From contig JAUSHJ010000040.1 in the NCBI GenBank assembly GCA_030648615.1, positions 6,769-70,768 on the forward strand: 64,000 bases of DNA. Reading direction: 5' to 3'. Positions 23,870 to 33,172 of the stretch are shown piece by piece (the stretch's first letter is position 1; each line of letters starts with the position of its first letter). This DNA is from Candidatus Micrarchaeota archaeon (GTDB lineage: Archaea > Micrarchaeota > Micrarchaeia > Anstonellales > Bilamarchaeaceae). Both the position numbers and the translations under genes were made by a program. The notes under the pieces were generated by a model, which saw only the letters and a program-made list of their open reading frames with translations, searched no databases and was not told where the DNA came from.

Positions 23870-24130
23870 ATGAAAGACAACATTGATCAGATTGCAGAAA
23901 TGCTCAGTACGCTTACTGAAGATACAACTATTCCAAAAAACATAAGAAAAGCTCTTAGTGAAGCTAGGGATAGATTGAAGGGATCGGATGATGCAAATAT
24001 CAAAGTAAGTGCCGCAGTATATCTGATTGAATCTATAAGTGAAGATATCAATATGCCATCCCACGCGAGAACTCAAGTATGGGCAGTCATGAGTATGTTA
24101 GAATCTTTGAAAATAAATCCTATTCAGTAA
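23870..24130 (+). CDS. UPF0147 family protein
   Basis: DTTIPKNIRK...D.NMP.HARTQVW. Confidence 0.9.
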   Translation: MKDNIDQIAEMLSTLTEDTTIPKNIRKALSEARDRLKGSDDANIKVSAAVYLIESISEDINMPSHARTQVWAVMSMLESLKINPIQ

Positions 24131-24144
24131 TTAAAACAGGCGGT

Positions 24145-25590
24145 ATGGTGAATAGTTTATCGGTGCTTGTTCAAAATGGTATTCGCGTAAGTACAGATGC
24201 AGAAGAGATGCTTAAGAATATCGAAGATCAGGAAATTGTTGATAAGCTAATTAAATTAAATAAACCGATGATTACAAAAGAAGATCTGGAAACTTTGTTA
24301 AGAAAAGAAGAAACCATAGTAGAAAAGGTTGATATATTACGGTCCAGTGATTTCAATCCTATTGCGAAAGAATATTCTCCAGATATAGAAGTTCTACATG
24401 CTAAAGATATCACTGGGAAATCCAGGACAAGGGGAGAAGTTGACGATTTTGTAAGTTATTTTAAGAATCGTTACGAACGCATATCAAGAATGCTTCGAGC
24501 CCCTGGGAGATATCCGCAGATGGATCTTGGGGAAGTTAAACGTCATGTTGGAGAACGTGTGCGTGTAATCGTAACTGTGATGGAAAAACGAGATACACAA
24601 AAAGGAAATTTGCTTCTTGAAGTAGAAGATTTGACAGGGAGATTTAAGATTATAATAACTTCTAATTCTAAAAATGAAAAACTAGAAGAGAAATCTAAAA
24701 ATATTTTACTTGATGATATAATTGCAATTACCGGGAAGGTATTTGAACCTTTCATGATTGCTGAAGATATAGAATGGCCCGACATTCCAGTACTTCGGGA
24801 AAGGAAATTCTCTGAACTTGATGTTGCAACCGTTTATATTTCTGACTTACATTTTGGTTCCAAGTATTTTCTTGACCATTATTTGAATCTTTTTGTAGAT
24901 TGGATTCATGGGAAAGGTGAGGCAAAAGAGCTCGCTGGAAAAGTAAAATATATGGTAGTCGCCGGTGATCTAGTAGACGGCATAGGCATCTATCCTAATC
25001 AAGAAAAAGAATTGGTAGTTAAGGACATCTACAAACAATATGATATGTTTGAAGATTTTCTTGAGAAGATTCCTGATTACGTAGAAGTTATAATATCTCC
25101 TGGAAATCATGATGCTGTGAGACGTGGAGAACCGATGCCAGCCATACCGACAGAATTTATTAAAAACGATGTAATCCGAGTTGGAAATCCATCCACTGTT
25201 ATCATAGAAGGTCTTAGACATCTGATTTATCACGGTACTTCCATGGATTCACTCATTGCAGCATTGCCCAATGCCAGTTATAGTCATCCAGAAAAAGTTA
25301 TGACGGAGTATCTGAAACGAAGGCATCTTTCACCAATATATGGTGGTAATCTTATAATTCCGGAAAAAGTCGACTATCTTGTAATAGATGACCCACCAGA
25401 TATTCTTCACTGCGGTCACGTTCATAGAAACGGATACATGCTTTATCGTGGAACGTTGGTAATAAATTCAGGCACTTTTCAGGATAGGACTGATTACCAA
25501 ATGAAGCAAGGTCACGTACCAACGCCAGCGATGGTTCCAGTTTATGAAATGAAATATGGTAGGTTGAGAACCTTAGATTTCAAGGTATGA
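24145..25590 (+). CDS. polB: DNA polymerase D small subunit DP1
   Basis: OB fold plus SDLHFGS, AGDLVDG, PGNHD, HCGHVH. Confidence 0.95.
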   Translation: MVNSLSVLVQNGIRVSTDAEEMLKNIEDQEIVDKLIKLNKPMITKEDLETLLRKEETIVEKVDILRSSDFNPIAKEYSPDIEVLHAKDITGKSRTRGEVDDFVSYFKNRYERISRMLRAPGRYPQMDLGEVKRHVGERVRVIVTVMEKRDTQKGNLLLEVEDLTGRFKIIITSNSKNEKLEEKSKNILLDDIIAITGKVFEPFMIAEDIEWPDIPVLRERKFSELDVATVYISDLHFGSKYFLDHYLNLFVDWIHGKGEAKELAGKVKYMVVAGDLVDGIGIYPNQEKELVVKDIYKQYDMFEDFLEKIPDYVEVIISPGNHDAVRRGEPMPAIPTEFIKNDVIRVGNPSTVIIEGLRHLIYHGTSMDSLIAALPNASYSHPEKVMTEYLKRRHLSPIYGGNLIIPEKVDYLVIDDPPDILHCGHVHRNGYMLYRGTLVINSGTFQDRTDYQMKQGHVPTPAMVPVYEMKYGRLRTLDFKV

Positions 25591-25600
25591 TTATTATTTG

Positions 25601-25701
25601 ATGTGATATCAATGAATTGTCCCACGGGACAAATATCCGTGTGCTTTTCAAGCACATCTGTTGAACAAGGTTCAACATCTCGAAGTGATTTCTCGATGAA
25701 T
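25601..25701. repeat. three-hairpin module between duplicated RBS/start segments of polC
   Basis: ttgtccc/gggacaa, tgtgctt/aagcaca, tgttgaac/gttcaaca; gtgat..atgaat occurs on both sides, with the ATGs 84 bp apart. Confidence 0.7.
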
Positions 25702-28700
25702 ACGCAAAATTATTTTATAATTCTCAAAGCCGAACTGCAGAAAGCATATGCAATTTCCAGCGAAGCTCGTTCGAAAGGTTTTGATCCTGAAAAAGAAGTA
25801 GAAGTTAAAATAGCTCCAGACGTTGCAGCAAGAGTAGAAGGTATTGTGGGTCCAAAGGGAATTGCAGAAATTATACGTAGTATGGAGAAGCAAGGAATTT
25901 CCAGAGAAGACGTCGCATTTGAAATAGCAAAAAAATTAGCTTCCGGAGAAATAATCAAAGGAACAAAAGAGCAACTTGTAGAACAAGCAGTTAGAACTGG
26001 ATTGGGGATACTTACAGAAGGTGTTCTTGTAGCTCCAACCGAAGGCATAGCTAAAGTTAGGGTAAAAAATAATCCTGATGGTACTGATTACGTTGCAGTT
26101 TATTATTCTGGTCCAATTAGAAGTGCTGGGGGAACTGCTGTAGCCTTAAGCGTTTTATTGGCAGATGTGGCTCGTAGGGTAGTTGGCATAGGAGATTATA
26201 GGGCAACTGATACTCAAATTGAAAGATATAATGAAGAGGTAAATATTTACGAATCACGTGTGGCGCATTTGCAATATAAGCCTCCTGAAGAAGATGTTAA
26301 ATGGGTTGTACAGAATTGCCCAGTTTGTATAGATGGTGATCCTACAGAAGAAATAGAAGTGAGTACTTTTCGCAGTGTTCCTGGTGTTGAAACCAATAGA
26401 ATAAGAGGGGGAGTACCACTTGTTATTTGTGAAGGGATAGCTCAGAAATGCGCAAAAGTTTTCAAGTATACTAAAAAACTTAACCTTGGCTGGACCTGGC
26501 TTGAAAAAATTATTAAAGTTAGTAAAAAAGAAGACAAGGTTGATATTAAGGTCGATTTTACCTATCTGGAAGGCATGGTAGCAGGAAGACCAGTATTTGC
26601 CTACCCATCTAGGATGGGTGGTTTTAGGCTCAGATATGGAAAAAGTAGGACGAATAGTCTAATGGCAAAAAATATTCACCCTGCAACAATGATTCTTCTT
26701 AGTAATTTTCTTGCCTATGGTACGCACATGAAAATTGAAAGACCAGGTAAAGGTTGTGTTATAGCTGGTCACGAATTGCTTGAACCTCCAGTGGTAAGAT
26801 TGAAAAATGGCACAGTGACAAAAGTCCATACTATCGAACACGCAGAGAATTTGGAAAATCAAGTATCAGAAGTACTTTTTCTTGGGGATATGTTAATTAC
26901 TTATGGTGATTTCCTAAAATCTAACTATCCGTTAATTCCAAGTGCTTGGTGTGATGAATGGTTCGTAAAGGAGTTAGAATCAAAAGGAGTTCAGCAGATT
27001 AACCTTAGCACAGCCAAAGACGCATTCGAATTTTCTAGGAAATACGAAGTCCCTCTTTTACCTCTATTTACTTATAACTGGGGAGATTTGAAAAAAGAGG
27101 AGCTTGGAAAACTTGCAGATTGGCTTTGTAAGGTGAATTTACAGTTAAATGAAAACGGAGAGTTGCAAGAAGCTACTATTGATAATGCCCCCGAGAAAAG
27201 TTATCTTGAAAACTTACTGGTGGAACATAAACTCGCAGATGGAAAAGTAATTCTAGAATCGGATAATGCTTACGCAGTTCTTAACACATTGGGGTTACTG
27301 AATCAGACTATTATTAGCATGGATAAATTTACTGCTGCATTTTCAAAATATAATTCGGTCTTTGAAATATTAAAAGAGTGTAGTGGAATAGAAATCAAAA
27401 ATAAATGTCCAAGTTATATTGGCGCAAGAATGGGTCGTCCAGAAAAAGCCAAGGAAAGAAAAATGGATGGTTCCCCACACGTTCTTTTTCCAACCGGTTC
27501 ACAGAAAAACAGAAGTATTGCTAAGGTTTACAAGACTATAAAAGGCAAGGATATAGAAAAAACCATTAATTTGGAGCTTGCAAGGATGCGCTGCATGAAT
27601 TGTAATTCACTTACATTTTATGCCAGATGTGAAACCTGTGGTGGAGCAGCAAGACTAGAACGTGCCTGTGTGAAATGTAGCAAGGCAACCGATAGCGAAA
27701 TTCACTGTGATGAAAAGACAATTATCTACGATCGGAGACCAATAAATATAATTTCCATTCTTGAAAATACCAAAAAGAAACTTGGTTTTATGCCAGAAGA
27801 TGTTAAAGGTATCAAAGGTCTTTCAAATCCTGAGAGATTTCCAGAACGTGTAGAAAAAGGGTTTTTCCGTTCAAAACACGATGTCTATGTATTTCGAGAT
27901 GGTACTTCCAGGTTCGATGCTACGGATATACCTATCACACACTTTATTCCAAAAGAAATTGGGGTAACCATTGAGAAACTACGTACTCTTGGCTATGACA
28001 AGGATTATTTTGGGAATGAGCTTACCAAAGATGATCAATTGGTTACCATGTATCATCAAGATATAATACTTGCAGATAATGGTGCTGACTATTTCATGAA
28101 AGTAGCAAATTTCATGGATGACATGCTGGTAAATCTTTATGGGTTACAATCATTTTATAATGTGAAAAAGAAAGATGATTTGATTGGGCATTTATGTGCT
28201 GCGCTTTCTCCTCACACTAGTGCAGCAGTGCTATGCAGAATAATTGGTTTTACCAGAGCTAATGTTGGATATGGGCATCCTTACTTTCATACTGTAAAGA
28301 GAAGAAATTGTTTCCATCCACAAACTCGTATTTTAATCGAAAGCAGTAAAAATAAAAAATACAAGATCCTCGAAGTTACACTAGAGGATATTACCGAGAA
28401 TCTACTAGGTGCTAAAAATGCACGCATAAAAGTTCTGGATAATGATACTATACGAGTAGAATCAGAAGAAGAATTATTTGTTCACAGTATAGATAAGAGT
28501 TCAAAACAGATAGTAAAAAGAAAAATAAAATGTTTCATGAAAACAAAAGCTCCAGAATACTGGATAAGAATAATGACCAAAAATGGAAGAGAGATGTCAG
28601 TTACACCGGATCACAATATTCTTTGTATAGAAAACGGCATCATGAAATCTATAGAAGCTTCTAATGTAGTTCTTGGGCAGAAAATACCAATACGAGATAA

Positions 28701-29592
28701 ATCAAAGAAATCATTTATACTTGAACCTATTGTAAAGATAGAAAAATTCATCGAGGTTAAAAATGCTTATTGCTTGGACATAGAAACAGAAAGCGATGAA
28801 TTAGTAGAGAAAAATGTTCTATTGAACAATGGTATATTTTGTATTCGATGTGATGGTGATGAAGACTGTGTTATGATGCTTTTGGATGCACTAATAAATT
28901 TCTCAAGACATTACCTGGATGAAAGACGTGGAGGAACAATGGACACTCCATTGGTACTTAGTCCAACCATAGATCCAAAAGAAGTAGATGATGAAGCACA
29001 CTGCATAGAAATGGTGACCAGTTACCCATTAGAATTTTATCATGCAACTGAAAGATTTGCATTGCCAAGCGAAGTAAAAATTAAAACTGTAAAAGATGTG
29101 CTTGGAAAAGATGAACAGTTTGACATTCCGCTTACTCATTTAGGTGGCTATATAGATAAGGGAAATATACGTACTGCCTACGTTTTGTTGGATTCAATTC
29201 CAGATAAAATAAAAGTGCAATTTGAATTGCACGAGCGACTTAGAGGTGTTGACCAGAAGGATGCTGCAGAACGGCTTATTCTTAGTCATTTCATCCCTGA
29301 TCTCTATGGCAATCTTCGTTCTTTTTCAAGACAAACTTTCCGCTGTGGTAATTGCAATGAAAGTTTCCGGAGAGTGCCCCTTGCAGGTAAATGTTATCGT
29401 TGCGGTGGAAATCTTCTTTTAACAATTAATAAAGGCGGAATTCAGAAATATTTAGAGATATCAAGGGGAATAATAGATCGGTATCAGCTTCCAGATTATT
29501 TGAAACAGCGGATTGATCTTCTTGACAAAGAGATAAAAAGTATATTTGAGGATGATAAGATAAAACAATTAGGTTTGGCAGATTTTATATAA
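25696..29592 (+). CDS. polC: DNA polymerase D large subunit DP2, intein-containing
   Basis: GPIRSAGGT, GFRLRYG, zinc fingers, KRRN|CDGDED catalytic motif split by an intein. An alternative in-frame ATG exists at 25612. Confidence 0.97.
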   Translation: MNTQNYFIILKAELQKAYAISSEARSKGFDPEKEVEVKIAPDVAARVEGIVGPKGIAEIIRSMEKQGISREDVAFEIAKKLASGEIIKGTKEQLVEQAVRTGLGILTEGVLVAPTEGIAKVRVKNNPDGTDYVAVYYSGPIRSAGGTAVALSVLLADVARRVVGIGDYRATDTQIERYNEEVNIYESRVAHLQYKPPEEDVKWVVQNCPVCIDGDPTEEIEVSTFRSVPGVETNRIRGGVPLVICEGIAQKCAKVFKYTKKLNLGWTWLEKIIKVSKKEDKVDIKVDFTYLEGMVAGRPVFAYPSRMGGFRLRYGKSRTNSLMAKNIHPATMILLSNFLAYGTHMKIERPGKGCVIAGHELLEPPVVRLKNGTVTKVHTIEHAENLENQVSEVLFLGDMLITYGDFLKSNYPLIPSAWCDEWFVKELESKGVQQINLSTAKDAFEFSRKYEVPLLPLFTYNWGDLKKEELGKLADWLCKVNLQLNENGELQEATIDNAPEKSYLENLLVEHKLADGKVILESDNAYAVLNTLGLLNQTIISMDKFTAAFSKYNSVFEILKECSGIEIKNKCPSYIGARMGRPEKAKERKMDGSPHVLFPTGSQKNRSIAKVYKTIKGKDIEKTINLELARMRCMNCNSLTFYARCETCGGAARLERACVKCSKATDSEIHCDEKTIIYDRRPINIISILENTKKKLGFMPEDVKGIKGLSNPERFPERVEKGFFRSKHDVYVFRDGTSRFDATDIPITHFIPKEIGVTIEKLRTLGYDKDYFGNELTKDDQLVTMYHQDIILADNGADYFMKVANFMDDMLVNLYGLQSFYNVKKKDDLIGHLCAALSPHTSAAVLCRIIGFTRANVGYGHPYFHTVKRRNCFHPQTRILIESSKNKKYKILEVTLEDITENLLGAKNARIKVLDNDTIRVESEEELFVHSIDKSSKQIVKRKIKCFMKTKAPEYWIRIMTKNGREMSVTPDHNILCIENGIMKSIEASNVVLGQKIPIRDKSKKSFILEPIVKIEKFIEVKNAYCLDIETESDELVEKNVLLNNGIFCIRCDGDEDCVMMLLDALINFSRHYLDERRGGTMDTPLVLSPTIDPKEVDDEAHCIEMVTSYPLEFYHATERFALPSEVKIKTVKDVLGKDEQFDIPLTHLGGYIDKGNIRTAYVLLDSIPDKIKVQFELHERLRGVDQKDAAERLILSHFIPDLYGNLRSFSRQTFRCGNCNESFRRVPLAGKCYRCGGNLLLTINKGGIQKYLEISRGIIDRYQLPDYLKQRIDLLDKEIKSIFEDDKIKQLGLADFI
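28309..28848 (+). mobile_element. mini-intein (180 aa) in DP2 with atypical C-terminal Arg
   Basis: CFHPQT start, block B VTPDH, block F AYCLDI, end NNGIFCIR|C. Confidence 0.9.
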
Positions 29593-29626
29593 TCTGCTAG
29601 ATGATATAGGGTAGACGGTAGTTATC

Positions 29627-31108
29627 ATGGAAATTTACAATTCACTAACGAAAAAAATCGAAGAGTTTAAGACAGGGGATTCTGGACCCAAGACCATCAT
29701 CATGTACACCTGCGGACTTACTCCATATGATAGTGCACACATAGGTCATGCAAGAACCTACGTAGCATTCGATATTATCAAAAGATATCTAGTAAAAAAA
29801 GGTCATAAAATTTATCATATACAAAACATTACTGATGTCGATGATAAGATAATTAAGAGATGCAAGGAAACTGGAAGTGATCCTAAAAAACTTACAGAAA
29901 CGATTCATACTGAAGCACTTGAATTATTTGATAAATTAAATATTATGCGTGCAGATGTTTATCCAAAGGTAACTGATAATATTCCAGAAATAATCGATGC
30001 TATAAAAAAACTCATTCAAAACGGATTTGCCTACGAGACTGCAAGTGGTGTCTATTATTCAGTTTCAAAGTTCAAGAATTATGGCAAGCTTTCCGGTCAA
30101 AAATTAGATGAAGTAAAATCAGGTGCAAGGGTAGAAGTAGATGAAACTAAAAAAGCAGCAGAAGATTTTGCAGTCTGGAAAAAGACTAATAACGAAATTA
30201 TCGAATTCGATTCTCCTTGGGGCAGAGGGAGGCCAGGTTGGCATATAGAATGCAGTGCCATGGCAGAAAAATACGCCAAAGGTACACTGGATATACATGG
30301 TGGCGGCAGGGATTTGATTTTTCCGCATCATGAAAATGAAATAGCACAAAGTGAAGCTGCATTTGATCATAAATTCGCTAAAATATGGGTGCATACTGGG
30401 CCGCTTACAGTTAACGGAGAAAAAATGAGTAAGAGTCTTGGTAATTTTGTAACTCTGAAAGAAGCAACAAATAAATTTGATGCAAATGCCATAAGGATGT
30501 TCTTTACTCAAACGCACTATCGTAGTTCCATGGATTATAATGAAGATACTTTAACTGCAGCACAGGAAAGTGTTGAAAGAATATTAAATTCTATCGGTCT
30601 TCTCGAAGAGTCACTTTCTAAAAAAGATAAAAAACACGATAAAACCGATGAGAAATTTGTTCAGGAAAGTAATAAACTAATCGAACAATTTTACAATTCA
30701 ATGGATAGTGATTTTGATACTCCAAATGCCATAGCTGCATCGTTTGGTTTGGTTAAGCTTGTCAATTCCCATGTTTCAAAAGATATGGTGGATATAAAAC
30801 AACTTAAAAAAGTAAATGAAAAAATGAATTCTATGGTTGAAATATTTGGATTTGTTGAGAAAAAATCAGATGTTTCATTCAAAATAGATGAGCTTAAGAA
30901 GCTCGCTAAAGATATAGAACTTAATTATGGGATTTCCATAGATAATGAATCGAGTGCTGAAATTCTCATTAGTGAAATTACAAATGCTCGTGAGTCTCTG
31001 AGGAAAGCAAAGAATTATTCTGCATCTGATGATATCAGAAATAAGTTAGCTTTCATGGGGATTTTATTAGAAGATAGTTCTGGTGGAATAAGGAAAAAAA
31101 TAAAGTAA
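29627..31108 (+). CDS. cysS: cysteinyl-tRNA synthetase
   Basis: CGLT, HIGH, GRPGWHIEC, KMSKS. Confidence 0.97.
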   Translation: MEIYNSLTKKIEEFKTGDSGPKTIIMYTCGLTPYDSAHIGHARTYVAFDIIKRYLVKKGHKIYHIQNITDVDDKIIKRCKETGSDPKKLTETIHTEALELFDKLNIMRADVYPKVTDNIPEIIDAIKKLIQNGFAYETASGVYYSVSKFKNYGKLSGQKLDEVKSGARVEVDETKKAAEDFAVWKKTNNEIIEFDSPWGRGRPGWHIECSAMAEKYAKGTLDIHGGGRDLIFPHHENEIAQSEAAFDHKFAKIWVHTGPLTVNGEKMSKSLGNFVTLKEATNKFDANAIRMFFTQTHYRSSMDYNEDTLTAAQESVERILNSIGLLEESLSKKDKKHDKTDEKFVQESNKLIEQFYNSMDSDFDTPNAIAASFGLVKLVNSHVSKDMVDIKQLKKVNEKMNSMVEIFGFVEKKSDVSFKIDELKKLAKDIELNYGISIDNESSAEILISEITNARESLRKAKNYSASDDIRNKLAFMGILLEDSSGGIRKKIK

Positions 31109-31127
31109 AATAATACGGGTGATTTTC

Positions 31128-31832
31128 ATAGTTCAGATATCTATAGTTATACCTACGTTGAATGAGGAAAAGTATGTTGAAAAAACTCTTCGATCTATAA
31201 AAAATCAAAATATTAAAAAAAGTTACGAAACTATAATTGTGGACAGTTATAGTAAAGATAAGACTTTACTCATTGCAAAGAAGTATGGCTGCAAGGTAGT
31301 TCACTGTCCTCCTGGTATAATTGCATTGGCAAGGCAAAAAGGTTTCGATGTTGCTGAAGGCAACGTTTTTGTATGTGCAAATGCAGATACTATATACCCT
31401 AGGAATTGGCTCGAGAGACTCACAAAGCCAATATTCGATAAAAAAGCAGTTGCCAGCTGTGGTAACCTTACTCCATTAGATGGAAACACTATAGAACGTA
31501 TATTTACCAAGCGTATTCTTCACCCAATTGCAAGTATATCATTCAAATTAGGTATGCACTATGCTCCAGGAGAGACCATTGCATTTACCAAGCAGGTATT
31601 TGACAAAGTCAAAGGTTTCAATGTGAAACTGAAAACTGCAGAAGATATGGATCTGATAAAGAGGATATCTAAACATGGTAAAGTTGCCTATGTGCCAGAT
31701 GCTATGGTTTACATTTCTATGAGGAGAATAAGAAAATGGGGATATTTTTATTATATAACATTCCACACTACTAATTTTATCAGTATAAATCTGCTAAATC
31801 GTGGCCATGATAAGTATGAACCTATAAGATGA
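31128..31832 (+). CDS. GT2 glycosyltransferase (possible ATA start)
   Basis: SIVIPTLNEE, VDSYSKD, NAD, ED, RR. The track's GTG at 31119 lies inside GGTGA. Confidence 0.85.
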   Translation: MVQISIVIPTLNEEKYVEKTLRSIKNQNIKKSYETIIVDSYSKDKTLLIAKKYGCKVVHCPPGIIALARQKGFDVAEGNVFVCANADTIYPRNWLERLTKPIFDKKAVASCGNLTPLDGNTIERIFTKRILHPIASISFKLGMHYAPGETIAFTKQVFDKVKGFNVKLKTAEDMDLIKRISKHGKVAYVPDAMVYISMRRIRKWGYFYYITFHTTNFISINLLNRGHDKYEPIR

Positions 31833-31870
31833 TCTTATAACAGGGTATCAAAAAGTTATTAATTAAAAAA

Positions 31871-32644
31871 TTATTTGAGTATTTTAACTACAATATAAAT
31901 GACAATTACTCCAATAAATAATGCAATAGTTTGAAGCAGGTCTTTTTTCAATGTCGCATCTTTTTTTTCGTGATTATGGAATAATTCAGGTATTAAATCT
32001 GTGCAGGACATATATATGAAAGTTCCAGCTGTAAATGCTAGACCTAGTGCTTGAAGATCCTTTATTGTTTGGGCGAAGTAAAAGAATACTACTGCTCCGA
32101 TAATTGATATTAGTGCACTGAGGAGATTGAAAAAAAGAGCCTTACTTCTACTAAAACCACTATATATCAAGAGTCCAAAATCCCCTATCTCCTGGGGGAT
32201 TTCGTGAGCAACTATTGCTATAGTAGTTATTACACCAAGGTGAAAATCGGTCATAAAGCTAGCTGCTATGGCTACACCATCAAAGAAATTGTGCATTCCA
32301 TCTCCTATGAGATTAAGATAACCAACTGCCTTAATTTTGACCTCACCTTTCTTATGTTGGTCATGGATGTGATGATGGTTGTGGTGCCAGTAAACAAATT
32401 TTTCTAAAATGAAAAACATTAATATGCTCAGGAGTGTGGTTGTAAGTACTTGGTCAGCAGGTAAAGTATCCAGGGCCTCGGGAAGTACATCGAAAAATGC
32501 ACCAGCAAGCATTGCTCCTGCTGCAAAACTTATTATTAATACTAGCCAAAGGTCATCTTTTTTGTTTGTGGGAGCTAAAAATACTCCTACAAGAGAGATG
32601 ACGCTTACGATAATTGTTGCGAGTAATATCTGTTCCAGAACCAT
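31871..32644 (-). CDS. ZIP-family metal transporter
   Basis: His-rich loop, HNFFDG, HEIPQE. Confidence 0.92.
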   Translation of the reverse strand: MVLEQILLATIIVSVISLVGVFLAPTNKKDDLWLVLIISFAAGAMLAGAFFDVLPEALDTLPADQVLTTTLLSILMFFILEKFVYWHHNHHHIHDQHKKGEVKIKAVGYLNLIGDGMHNFFDGVAIAASFMTDFHLGVITTIAIVAHEIPQEIGDFGLLIYSGFSRSKALFFNLLSALISIIGAVVFFYFAQTIKDLQALGLAFTAGTFIYMSCTDLIPELFHNHEKKDATLKKDLLQTIALFIGVIVIYIVVKILK

Positions 32645-32782
32645 AACCAGTTAATCAACCAAATTATTAATAAACTTAACTATAGAAGTTATTAACTATT
32701 GTAATGATTATAGGTGGAAGTTAATAATATCAGAGCTAAATCGAGAATTTGGAGATATATGCTCAAACCTGAAGGTTTCAAT

Positions 32783-33172
32783 ATGGCAAAAATACTAAGT
32801 TTTTCCCTGGATCGCGAAAGTCTGGAATTGCTAGATAAAATCGAGAATGTAACTTCATTTAAAAATCGTTCCGAGCTCATTCGTTCTGCTCTTCAATTAT
32901 TGCTCAATGATTCCAAAGAACTGGATAAAATGTCTGGGTATGTAAATGCCATAGTTGTGGTGACACATCCAGAATACAACGAGGAAAACATCTCTAAGAT
33001 AACTCATCAATATAGTGATTTAATCGCTACACACATACACAATAATGTGCATAGTGCTTGCATGGAGACTTTTATTGTACATGGGAATGCTGTTACGGTA
33101 TCAGCATTAGTTAAATCATTGAAAGAGAGCAAGGCAGTGAGTTATGTAAAACTTATGGTTGTGGCGGATTAG
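32783..33172 (+). CDS. NikR-like RHH/ACT metalloregulator
   Basis: ILSFSLD..NRSELIR; H-x-H...C metal site; divergent from the ZIP gene. Confidence 0.85.
   Translation: MAKILSFSLDRESLELLDKIENVTSFKNRSELIRSALQLLLNDSKELDKMSGYVNAIVVVTHPEYNEENISKITHQYSDLIATHIHNNVHSACMETFIVHGNAVTVSALVKSLKESKAVSYVKLMVVAD

Follow-up and report, generated by a model that had tools for sequence, protein, structure and literature searches.

We report a mini-intein in the large subunit (DP2) of the archaeal replicative polymerase PolD that ends in arginine directly before the catalytic CDGDED motif. It lies in a stretch of 64,000 nucleotides, here called the window, from Candidatus Micrarchaeota archaeon (GenBank assembly GCA_030648615.1, contig JAUSHJ010000040.1, positions 6,769 to 70,768 of the forward strand). 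To our knowledge, all described inteins release themselves when their last residue, Asn, Gln, Asp or Glu, cyclises. Comparison with related sequences indicates that the intein in the window is probably functional and belongs to a large, conserved and mobile clade of DP2 inteins ending in Arg (Arg-type inteins), which probably complete splicing by undescribed chemistry.

The frame of the DP2 gene reads ...HPYFHTVKRRN/CFHPQTRILIE...VTPDH...AYCLDIETESDELVEKNVLLNNGIFCIR/CDGDEDCVMMLL, with slashes here and below marking the splice junctions. The intein begins with CFHPQ, carries the VTPDH and AYCLD motifs and finishes with NNGIFCIR. The gene and the parts of the intein are as follows:

25696..29592, forward strand: DP2 gene including the intein, with matches to PolC_DP2_N and to the central and catalytic domains of 353-386 bits each.
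28297..28308, forward strand: end of the N-extein, KRRN, placed by the reading of the frame, the structure alignment and the intein-less relatives.
28309..28848, forward strand: mini-intein of 180 residues with HINT fold and without endonuclease domain, placed by its motifs, the alignment to 5bkh, and the AlphaFold2 (AF2) model with Foldseek.
28309..28311, forward strand: Cys1, the step 1 nucleophile, which is Cys in 63 out of 63 Arg-type inteins.
28561..28563, forward strand: Trp85, conserved without exception in the Arg clade and in the four Gln/Asn sequences of its sister group; most other DP2 inteins have Leu or Met here.
28603..28614, forward strand: block B Thr99-Pro-Asp-His102 (TxxH), with Thr in 61 and His in 62 of the 63 Arg-type inteins.
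28768..28773, forward strand: block F Tyr154-Cys155, with Cys at F:4.
28810..28812, forward strand: Lys168 at block F:13, which is His in canonical inteins, aligned to the His of the Pyrococcus horikoshii (Pho) PolII intein 12 residues before its terminal Gln.
28843..28845, forward strand: penultimate Ile179 (codon att), replacing His G:6.
28846..28848, forward strand: terminal Arg180 at G:7 (codon CGA).
28849..28851, forward strand: Cys+1 (codon tgt), with which both the C-extein and the catalytic CDGDED begin.
28849..29589, forward strand: C-extein of DP2, placed by the reading of the frame, the domain matches and the single-copy check.

An initial annotation of this DNA had described a DP2 mini-intein that terminates in Arg right before CDGDED, without a penultimate His and with Cys1 and TPDH intact. 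The frame att CGA tgt at 28843-28851, with Ile179 in the penultimate position, and the codons at 28309-28311 and 28603-28614 bear out this description. The end that it gave, 28851, takes in the codon of the +1 Cys and is corrected here to 28848. Its statement that the YCL of block F is intact holds for the YC(L) stretch itself, present at 28768-28776, but Cys stands for the common Asp at F:4 and Lys for His at F:13.

The insertion site KRRN/CDGDED lies inside the catalytic acidic motif of DP2, and the Pfam match to the catalytic domain falls into two pieces with the intein between them. KRRN-CDGDED is uninterrupted in the intein-less relatives L011, L013 and L015, and likewise in solved DP2 structures. 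The P. horikoshii PolII intein (PDB: 5bkh) aligns with the window intein end to end, its His-Gln on Ile-Arg and its CDGDED on CDGDED (E 2.8e-11). An AF2 model of the intein, built with 48 aligned sequences, reached a pLDDT of 94 and a pTM of 0.88, and its top Foldseek match was the Pyrococcus structure 7oec (TM 0.87, root mean square deviation 2.3 Å). There were 62 PDB matches to the model at E up to 0.001, the best listed of which are inteins, bacterial intein-like (BIL) domains and Hedgehog autoprocessing domains.

Of the characteristics of a class 1 intein, the window intein thus shows the in-frame insertion, Cys1, TPDH (99-102), Cys+1 and the HINT fold. It lacks a C-terminal Asn, Gln, Asp or Glu that could cyclise, with Arg180 instead, and the penultimate His, with Ile179 instead. 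Functional inteins without a penultimate His exist, as a passage of PMC4031507 states. Displaced splice junctions were considered and ruled out, because the exteins have to read KRRN-CDGDED. A Gln or Asn two residues before the end, conserved in 53 out of 63 Arg-type inteins, was also considered as the cyclising residue and rejected: the residue that follows it is no nucleophile, and the window intein has Cys in its place.

We searched the intein with 20 flanking residues on each side against 1.84 billion representative proteins. The best matches are DP2 proteins whose inteins likewise terminate in Arg. Among the 150 matches listed together with the DP2 of the window, 89 junctions matched the pattern, and the last intein residue was Gln in 39, Asn in 25, Arg in 16, Asp in eight and Pro in one, so that 15 listed representatives besides the window end in Arg. 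The representative with Pro (P0059) is a mini-intein that apparently ends in Pro-Pro before CDGDED, perhaps because this copy has decayed or carries a frameshift.

A degenerate DNA pattern for the junction, Arg-Cys-Asp-x-[DE]-[EQ]-[DA]...NFS, was additionally scanned over one genome per prokaryote species. It returned 82 stretches, all of which are DP2 junctions, with the block G consensus upstream in 81 and one cut by the end of the locus. The terminal Arg codon is CGA in 25, AGA in 23, AGG in 12, CGT in 11, CGG in six and CGC in five of them. DP2 junctions of the R-C-D-G-D type with varied Arg codons, for which the initial annotation had proposed to look, were thus found with all six codons in 82 genomes. 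According to the record titles, the hosts are Thermoplasmatota (22), Woesearchaeota (14), Nanobdellota (10), Pacearchaeota (eight), Micrarchaeota ('Microcaldota', seven), Methanobacteriota (five), Iainarchaeota (two), Hadarchaeota (two) and others, in total at least seven named phyla, and all are metagenome-assembled genomes (MAGs). An intein at the DP2 site was present in seven out of 40 relatives of the window's genome, six of these ending in Gln and one in Asn.

A few of these loci stand out in other respects. The extein pairing is MRRD/.../CDGDEA instead of KRRN/.../CDGDED in 23 out of the 55 complete Arg-type loci (L021, L023, L029, L034 and 19 others), which after splicing would read D-C-D-G-D, with the acidic triad moved two residues across the junction. 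Only two loci are discordant in this co-variation, which represents few events because the hosts are related to each other. L026, titled as an Atribacteria bacterium, carries an archaeal DP2 whose intein is 83% identical to inteins of Thermoplasmata MAGs, and the intein of L075, titled as Methanosarcinales, is 83% identical to that of the Nanoarchaeia MAG L044. Both are likely mis-binned contigs.

A tree of 125 distinct DP2 inteins was built from 110 N-terminal and 58 C-terminal residues of each, leaving out the final two. The 63 distinct Arg-type sequences form one side of a branch with a Shimodaira-Hasegawa-like approximate likelihood ratio test (SH-aLRT) support of 81, and their sister group consists of four sequences (P0033, P0035, P0036 and P0052), three ending in Gln and one in Asn. 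The window intein falls within a subclade of five mini-inteins from Micrarchaeota MAGs (SH-aLRT 98), and its nearest relative is L096 with 55% identity. When four trait columns were removed, a free quick tree placed the sister sequences within the Arg clade, at the cost of two changes. A tree that constrains the DP2 Arg type together is 21 log-likelihood units better than this free quick tree and is not rejected (approximately unbiased test, p-AU 0.77). The 63 Arg-type DP2 inteins are thus compatible with one clade, and the simplest reading of the trees would be a single origin from a Gln-ending ancestor by one CAR to CGR transition. The window intein shows every invariant of the clade, namely Cys1, Trp85, TxxH, Tyr-Cys at F:3-4, Lys or Arg at F:13, the terminal Arg and Cys+1.

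The initial annotation had offered an error for, or a variant of, CAA as one explanation of the CGA codon. CGA and CAA differ by a single base. The invariance of Arg in 63 distinct related inteins and the use of all six Arg codons across 82 genomes nevertheless refute this explanation, and the nearest relatives of the window intein agree with this: their subclade uses CGA in the window and CGT, CGT, AGG and CGG in the other four members. Since the terminal Arg is common to the whole clade, it is far beyond chance. A contig that a second assembler produced from run X1, which is possibly the source sample, is identical across 27600-29600 (2001 bases) at a word depth of 11, a comparison made on assembled contigs. 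Runs X2 and X3 gave pieces of 151 bases (28450-28600 and 28492-28642) with one difference each, both of which miss the Arg codon. Run X4 returned nothing, and an exact 25-base scan of metagenome contigs for the stretch just 5' of the Arg codon found 0 stretches.

A reassignment of CGA to Gln is ruled out by the ordinary usage of this codon, 4.4 per 1000 codons in 641 long open reading frames (ORFs) of the window's genome, and by its presence at columns 765 and 1212 of the same DP2 protein, which are conserved as Arg or Lys. Taken together, the probability that CGA replaces a true CAA through faulty sequencing or assembly, or that it is read as Gln in this organism, is practically negligible. 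The genome (G000) contains two further inteins, one in a DEAD/Lhr-type helicase (G000:C36:6988-11076) and one in SRP54 (G000:C29:18207-21353). Both are large, inserted after GSGK, and have canonical His-Asn/Thr ends, so the assembly has normal intein ends elsewhere.

Among the 55 complete Arg-type inteins, Cys1 is present in all and TxxH in 54. Their lengths are 169-205 aa in the 16 minis and 464-518 aa in the other 39, and a LAGLIDADG_3 domain was detected in four out of the five large representatives tested. The ratio of nonsynonymous to synonymous substitution rates (dN/dS) is 0.10-0.26 in nine pairs with dS < 1.1, which share members and are therefore not independent. DP2 is present in one copy in the window's genome. 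In four out of five other host genomes the intein-split DP2 is likewise the single one; the fifth, where the gene runs off the contig, is ambiguous. Cys1, TxxH and Cys+1 are retained over 63 sequences down to about 30% identity.

On these grounds, the insert in the window is likely to splice. The contrary case, in which DP2 is inactive and PolB replicates the genome, or DP2 tolerates the insert, appears improbable. It would agree with Arg being incapable of any described step 3 chemistry and with the one gene for a family B polymerase (PolB) in this genome. However, the DP2 exteins are intact, with the domain scores given above, and the insert sits within the catalytic acidic motif. The purifying selection, the homing endonucleases retained in most members and the conservation of Cys1, TxxH and Cys+1 likewise argue for splicing.

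We compared the residues of the 63 Arg-type inteins with those of 57 other DP2 inteins, with the following result:

Block F:4: Cys in 63 out of 63 Arg-type inteins; Asp in 19, Ser in 18, Cys in 11 and Asn in nine of the 57 others.
Block F:6: Asp or Glu in 62 out of 63 Arg-type inteins.
Block F:13: Lys in 49 and Arg in 14 of the 63 Arg-type inteins; His in 40 out of the 57 others.
Trp85: 63 out of 63 Arg-type inteins; two out of the 57 others.
Penultimate residue: never His in the Arg type; His in 12 out of the 57 others.
Last residue: Arg, and never Lys, in 63 out of 63 Arg-type inteins; Gln, Asn or Asp in 56 of the others, with one misaligned row.

The Arg type also has an insertion of 4-7 residues before F:13, of six residues in the window intein. 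In the sister group, Trp85, Cys at F:4 and Glu at F:6 are already there and F:13 is still His or Asn, so that the changes linked to the switch are Gln to Arg in the terminal position and the replacement of the F:13 His by Lys or Arg. The structure of the Pho PolII intein has this His 3.4 Å from the carbonyl of the terminal residue, as given in a passage of PMC8229266, and in other inteins Asp at F:4 touches both Asn G:7 and Cys+1 (PMC4031507, in part). Since the published structures place the F:13 and F:4 residues there, F:13, F:4 and G:7 surround the scissile bond. For inteins in general, the same part of PMC4031507 lists Asp, then Cys, then Trp at F:4, His at F:13, and Asn, Gln, Asp and Glu as termini. 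In another clade of DP2 inteins the end is Tyr-Asp or Ile-Asp, with Lys at F:13 and Asp at F:4 (P0038, P0054, P0062, P0078, P0085, P0104, P0065 and P0081), so Lys at F:13 accompanies both non-amide endings. The first six of these share the insertion site and Lys F:13 with the window intein and differ from it in Asp F:4, the Asp end and their position in a separate clade.

The combination of Cys at F:4, Lys or Arg at F:13 and terminal Arg recurs in another family, the phage ribonucleotide reductases (RNRs). A scan of viral contigs for NG-x3-RR/CGEI returned 19 stretches (L106-L124), of which 14 are long RNR frames with an intein at TNP/CGEI and five are chance matches in frames of 19 residues. 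Of the earlier RNR patterns, one had too few fixed bases and one returned nothing. All 14 inteins of these phage B12-type RNRs have [YF]-Cys at F:3-4, Arg or Lys at F:13 and an Arg-Arg end; they are large, with Cys1, TPDH or TEDH, Cys+1 and a LAGLIDADG domain. They share Cys1, TPDH/TEDH, Cys F:4, Arg/Lys F:13, the terminal Arg and Cys+1 with the window intein, and differ from it in the host gene, the insertion site, the penultimate Arg, the absence of Trp85 and Lys instead of Asp or Glu at F:6. By BLAST, the RNR inteins have weak similarity to DP2 inteins (30-45 bits) without preference for the Arg type. A free tree places them beside the two canonical inteins of G000, and a tree uniting all Arg types is not rejected (p-AU 0.44). 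On these sequences, the triad may have had two origins, or a single old lineage of the Arg type may have moved between host genes. Upstream, L116 additionally contains what appears to be the end of another intein, of canonical type (...HTFLLSNGLPISN/S).

In the mechanism that we propose, steps 1, 2 and 4 would proceed as in class 1 inteins, because Cys1, TxxH and Cys+1 are present. Cys1, aided by Thr99 and His102 of block B, would form a thioester, Cys+1 would take the N-extein, and a later S-to-N shift would create the peptide bond. In step 3, the cleavage between Arg180 and Cys+1, Arg180 itself may be the nucleophile. Its N-epsilon, which takes the place that the N-epsilon had in the ancestral Gln, would attack the backbone carbonyl of the same residue and yield a six-membered acyl-guanidine lactam. 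Lys168 at F:13 could lower the pKa of the guanidinium, and could be the oxyanion partner or the general acid that protonates the leaving amine. Cys155 at F:4 could be a base, or could first activate the carbonyl as a thioester, and the lactam and thioester routes could combine, with the thioester first and the lactam second.

By atom count, a six-membered lactam through the N-epsilon of Arg, as suggested in the initial annotation, is geometrically right, and Lys in the terminal position would need a seven-membered ring. In peptide synthesis, activated arginine is well known to form a lactam as a side reaction. Consistent with the lactam, the end admits only Arg, in 63 out of 63 DP2 and 14 out of 14 phage RNR inteins, whereas the adjacent basic position F:13 admits Lys or Arg. 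This points to a geometry-specific role of the terminal residue and an electrostatic role of F:13. The sister group ending in Gln or Asn, the fact that CAR to CGR is one transition, and the placing of the three co-varying positions around the scissile bond also count in its favour. We put the lactam forward tentatively, as the likeliest of the routes considered here, plausible but short of probable.

The main rival of the lactam is a route through a Cys thioester, in which Cys155, kept in its thiolate form by Arg180 and Lys168, attacks the carbonyl of Arg180, the C-extein departs and the thiolactone of the intein is then hydrolysed, with Arg as a mere activator. Cys at F:4 in 63 out of 63 Arg-type against 11 out of 57 other DP2 inteins fits this route, as does its recurrence in all 14 Arg-Arg phage RNR inteins, which by BLAST are not preferentially similar to the DP2 Arg clade. 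Class 3 inteins employ Cys F:4 as a nucleophile, at the N-terminal junction (PMC4031507, in part). On the other hand, Cys F:4 is shared by the sister group with its Gln or Asn ends and by 11 other inteins of the Gln/Asn type and is therefore older than the Arg, and an Arg with a purely electrostatic role should at times be Lys, as at F:13, which is never seen. The test given above does not reject a shared ancestry of the Arg types in RNR and DP2, so the recurrence may not be independent. Overall, we regard the thioester route as rather unlikely.

Step 3 could also depend on outside help, by hydrolysis of the branched intermediate with water, or by a host enzyme that converts Arg to citrulline or ornithine, the neutral nitrogen of which would then cyclise. 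This is chemically possible and is without support in this analysis. PMC4031507 states in a passage on atypical termini that 'other mechanisms are possible'. Since very small genomes of archaea from at least seven named phyla, as well as phage RNR genes, have the same ending, a shared helper enzyme is unlikely, and we consider outside help very improbable.

Several points weigh against the lactam. The support for the unusual splicing chemistry suggested in the initial annotation is evolutionary in kind, from the conservation, the homing endonucleases, the purifying selection and the single DP2; by their record titles, all hosts are uncultured. A protonated guanidinium is non-nucleophilic, so the site would have to shift its pKa by several units, and amides that are not activated are poor electrophiles. 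The lactam explains the invariant Cys F:4 less directly than the thioester route does. The genome of the window also has PolB, and the requirement for PolD in this organism is assumed. Finally, the support for the codon comes from assembled contigs.

A broader proposal, which we find as easy to doubt as to accept, is that Arg-terminal inteins are a fourth mechanistic class, marked by the triad of Cys F:4, Lys/Arg F:13 and Arg G:7, that splices without amide or carboxyl cyclisation in the replicative polymerase of many uncultured archaea and in phage ribonucleotide reductases. In its boldest form, Cys F:4 would hold the N-extein, Cys+1 would undergo an N-to-S shift at the C-terminal junction, and the N-epsilon of Arg would resolve the thioester as a lactam.

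Among known systems, the PolII mini-inteins of P. horikoshii and P. abyssi (PDB: 5BKH, 7OEC, 2LCJ) are the most similar to the window intein in host protein, KRRN/CDGDED site, Cys1, TxxH, Cys+1, HINT fold and size. They also share a non-Asn terminus and a six-membered ring that would form. They are about 22-25% identical to the window intein and, according to a passage of PMC8229266, end in His-Gln with His at F:13, whereas the window intein has Ile-Arg, Lys F:13, Cys F:4 and the six-residue insertion before F:13. Compared with the Gln-type PolII/DP2 inteins at the same site in general, the terminal Gln and the block F His are replaced by Arg180 and Lys168.

The class 3 motif consists of Cys F:4, Trp B:12 and Thr G:5. 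Membership of the window intein in this class was rejected, as Cys1 is present, B:12 is Ile104 and not Trp, and G:5 is Cys178 and not Thr. Class 3 inteins, such as those in mycobacteriophage Bethlehem DnaB and D. radiodurans Snf2, have no nucleophile at the N-terminus but retain Asn as their last residue, while the window intein has Cys1 and no such Asn. The conserved Cys F:4 is common to both, and PMC4031507, in the part that describes class 3, names it together with 'two other positions'. The same source, again in part, presumes a variant step 3 for inteins with an atypical last residue, Gln, Asp or Glu, for example in the RNR of Chilo iridescent virus and in M. marisnigri PolII. These termini have a side-chain carbonyl that is able to cyclise by the known route, which Arg does not have.

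The gene for the small subunit of PolD adjoins DP2 on its 5' side, and the DP1-DP2 operon is intact in the window:

24079..25590, forward strand: DP1 gene (PolD small subunit), with Pfam matches to Metallophos, DNA_pol_E_B and an OB-fold.

PolD is named as the essential replicase of most archaea in the abstract of PMC7708050, which, like the intact operon, counts in favour of a working intein. The ORF of DP2 by mechanical call spans 25603-29592 with a GTG start at 25603, and the protein on record starts from the ATG at 25696 and has 1298 aa. It is a singleton cluster at 90% identity, and the identity look-up found no near-identical second record for it. On the 3' side of DP2 (29627-33172) lie genes for a cysteinyl-tRNA synthetase, a family 2 glycosyltransferase, a ZIP metal transporter (minus strand) and a NikR-like regulator.

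A full-text literature search brought up no paper that deals with an intein ending in Arg; catalogues of inteins in supplementary files, which lie outside such a search, may list such sequences. New here are the count of six codons, the sister group, the triad of Cys, Lys/Arg and Arg, and the recurrence of this triad in an RNR family. Intein finders and annotators that demand a terminal Asn or Gln will miss or mis-delimit Arg-ending elements. If the reading proposed here is true, protein splicing would gain a new chemical step from a conserved mobile family ending in Arg, whose members interrupt the active site of the replicative polymerase in at least 82 species of archaea and, it appears, phage RNR genes as well. 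Inteins with a different pH, redox or extein dependence may then become available for protein engineering.

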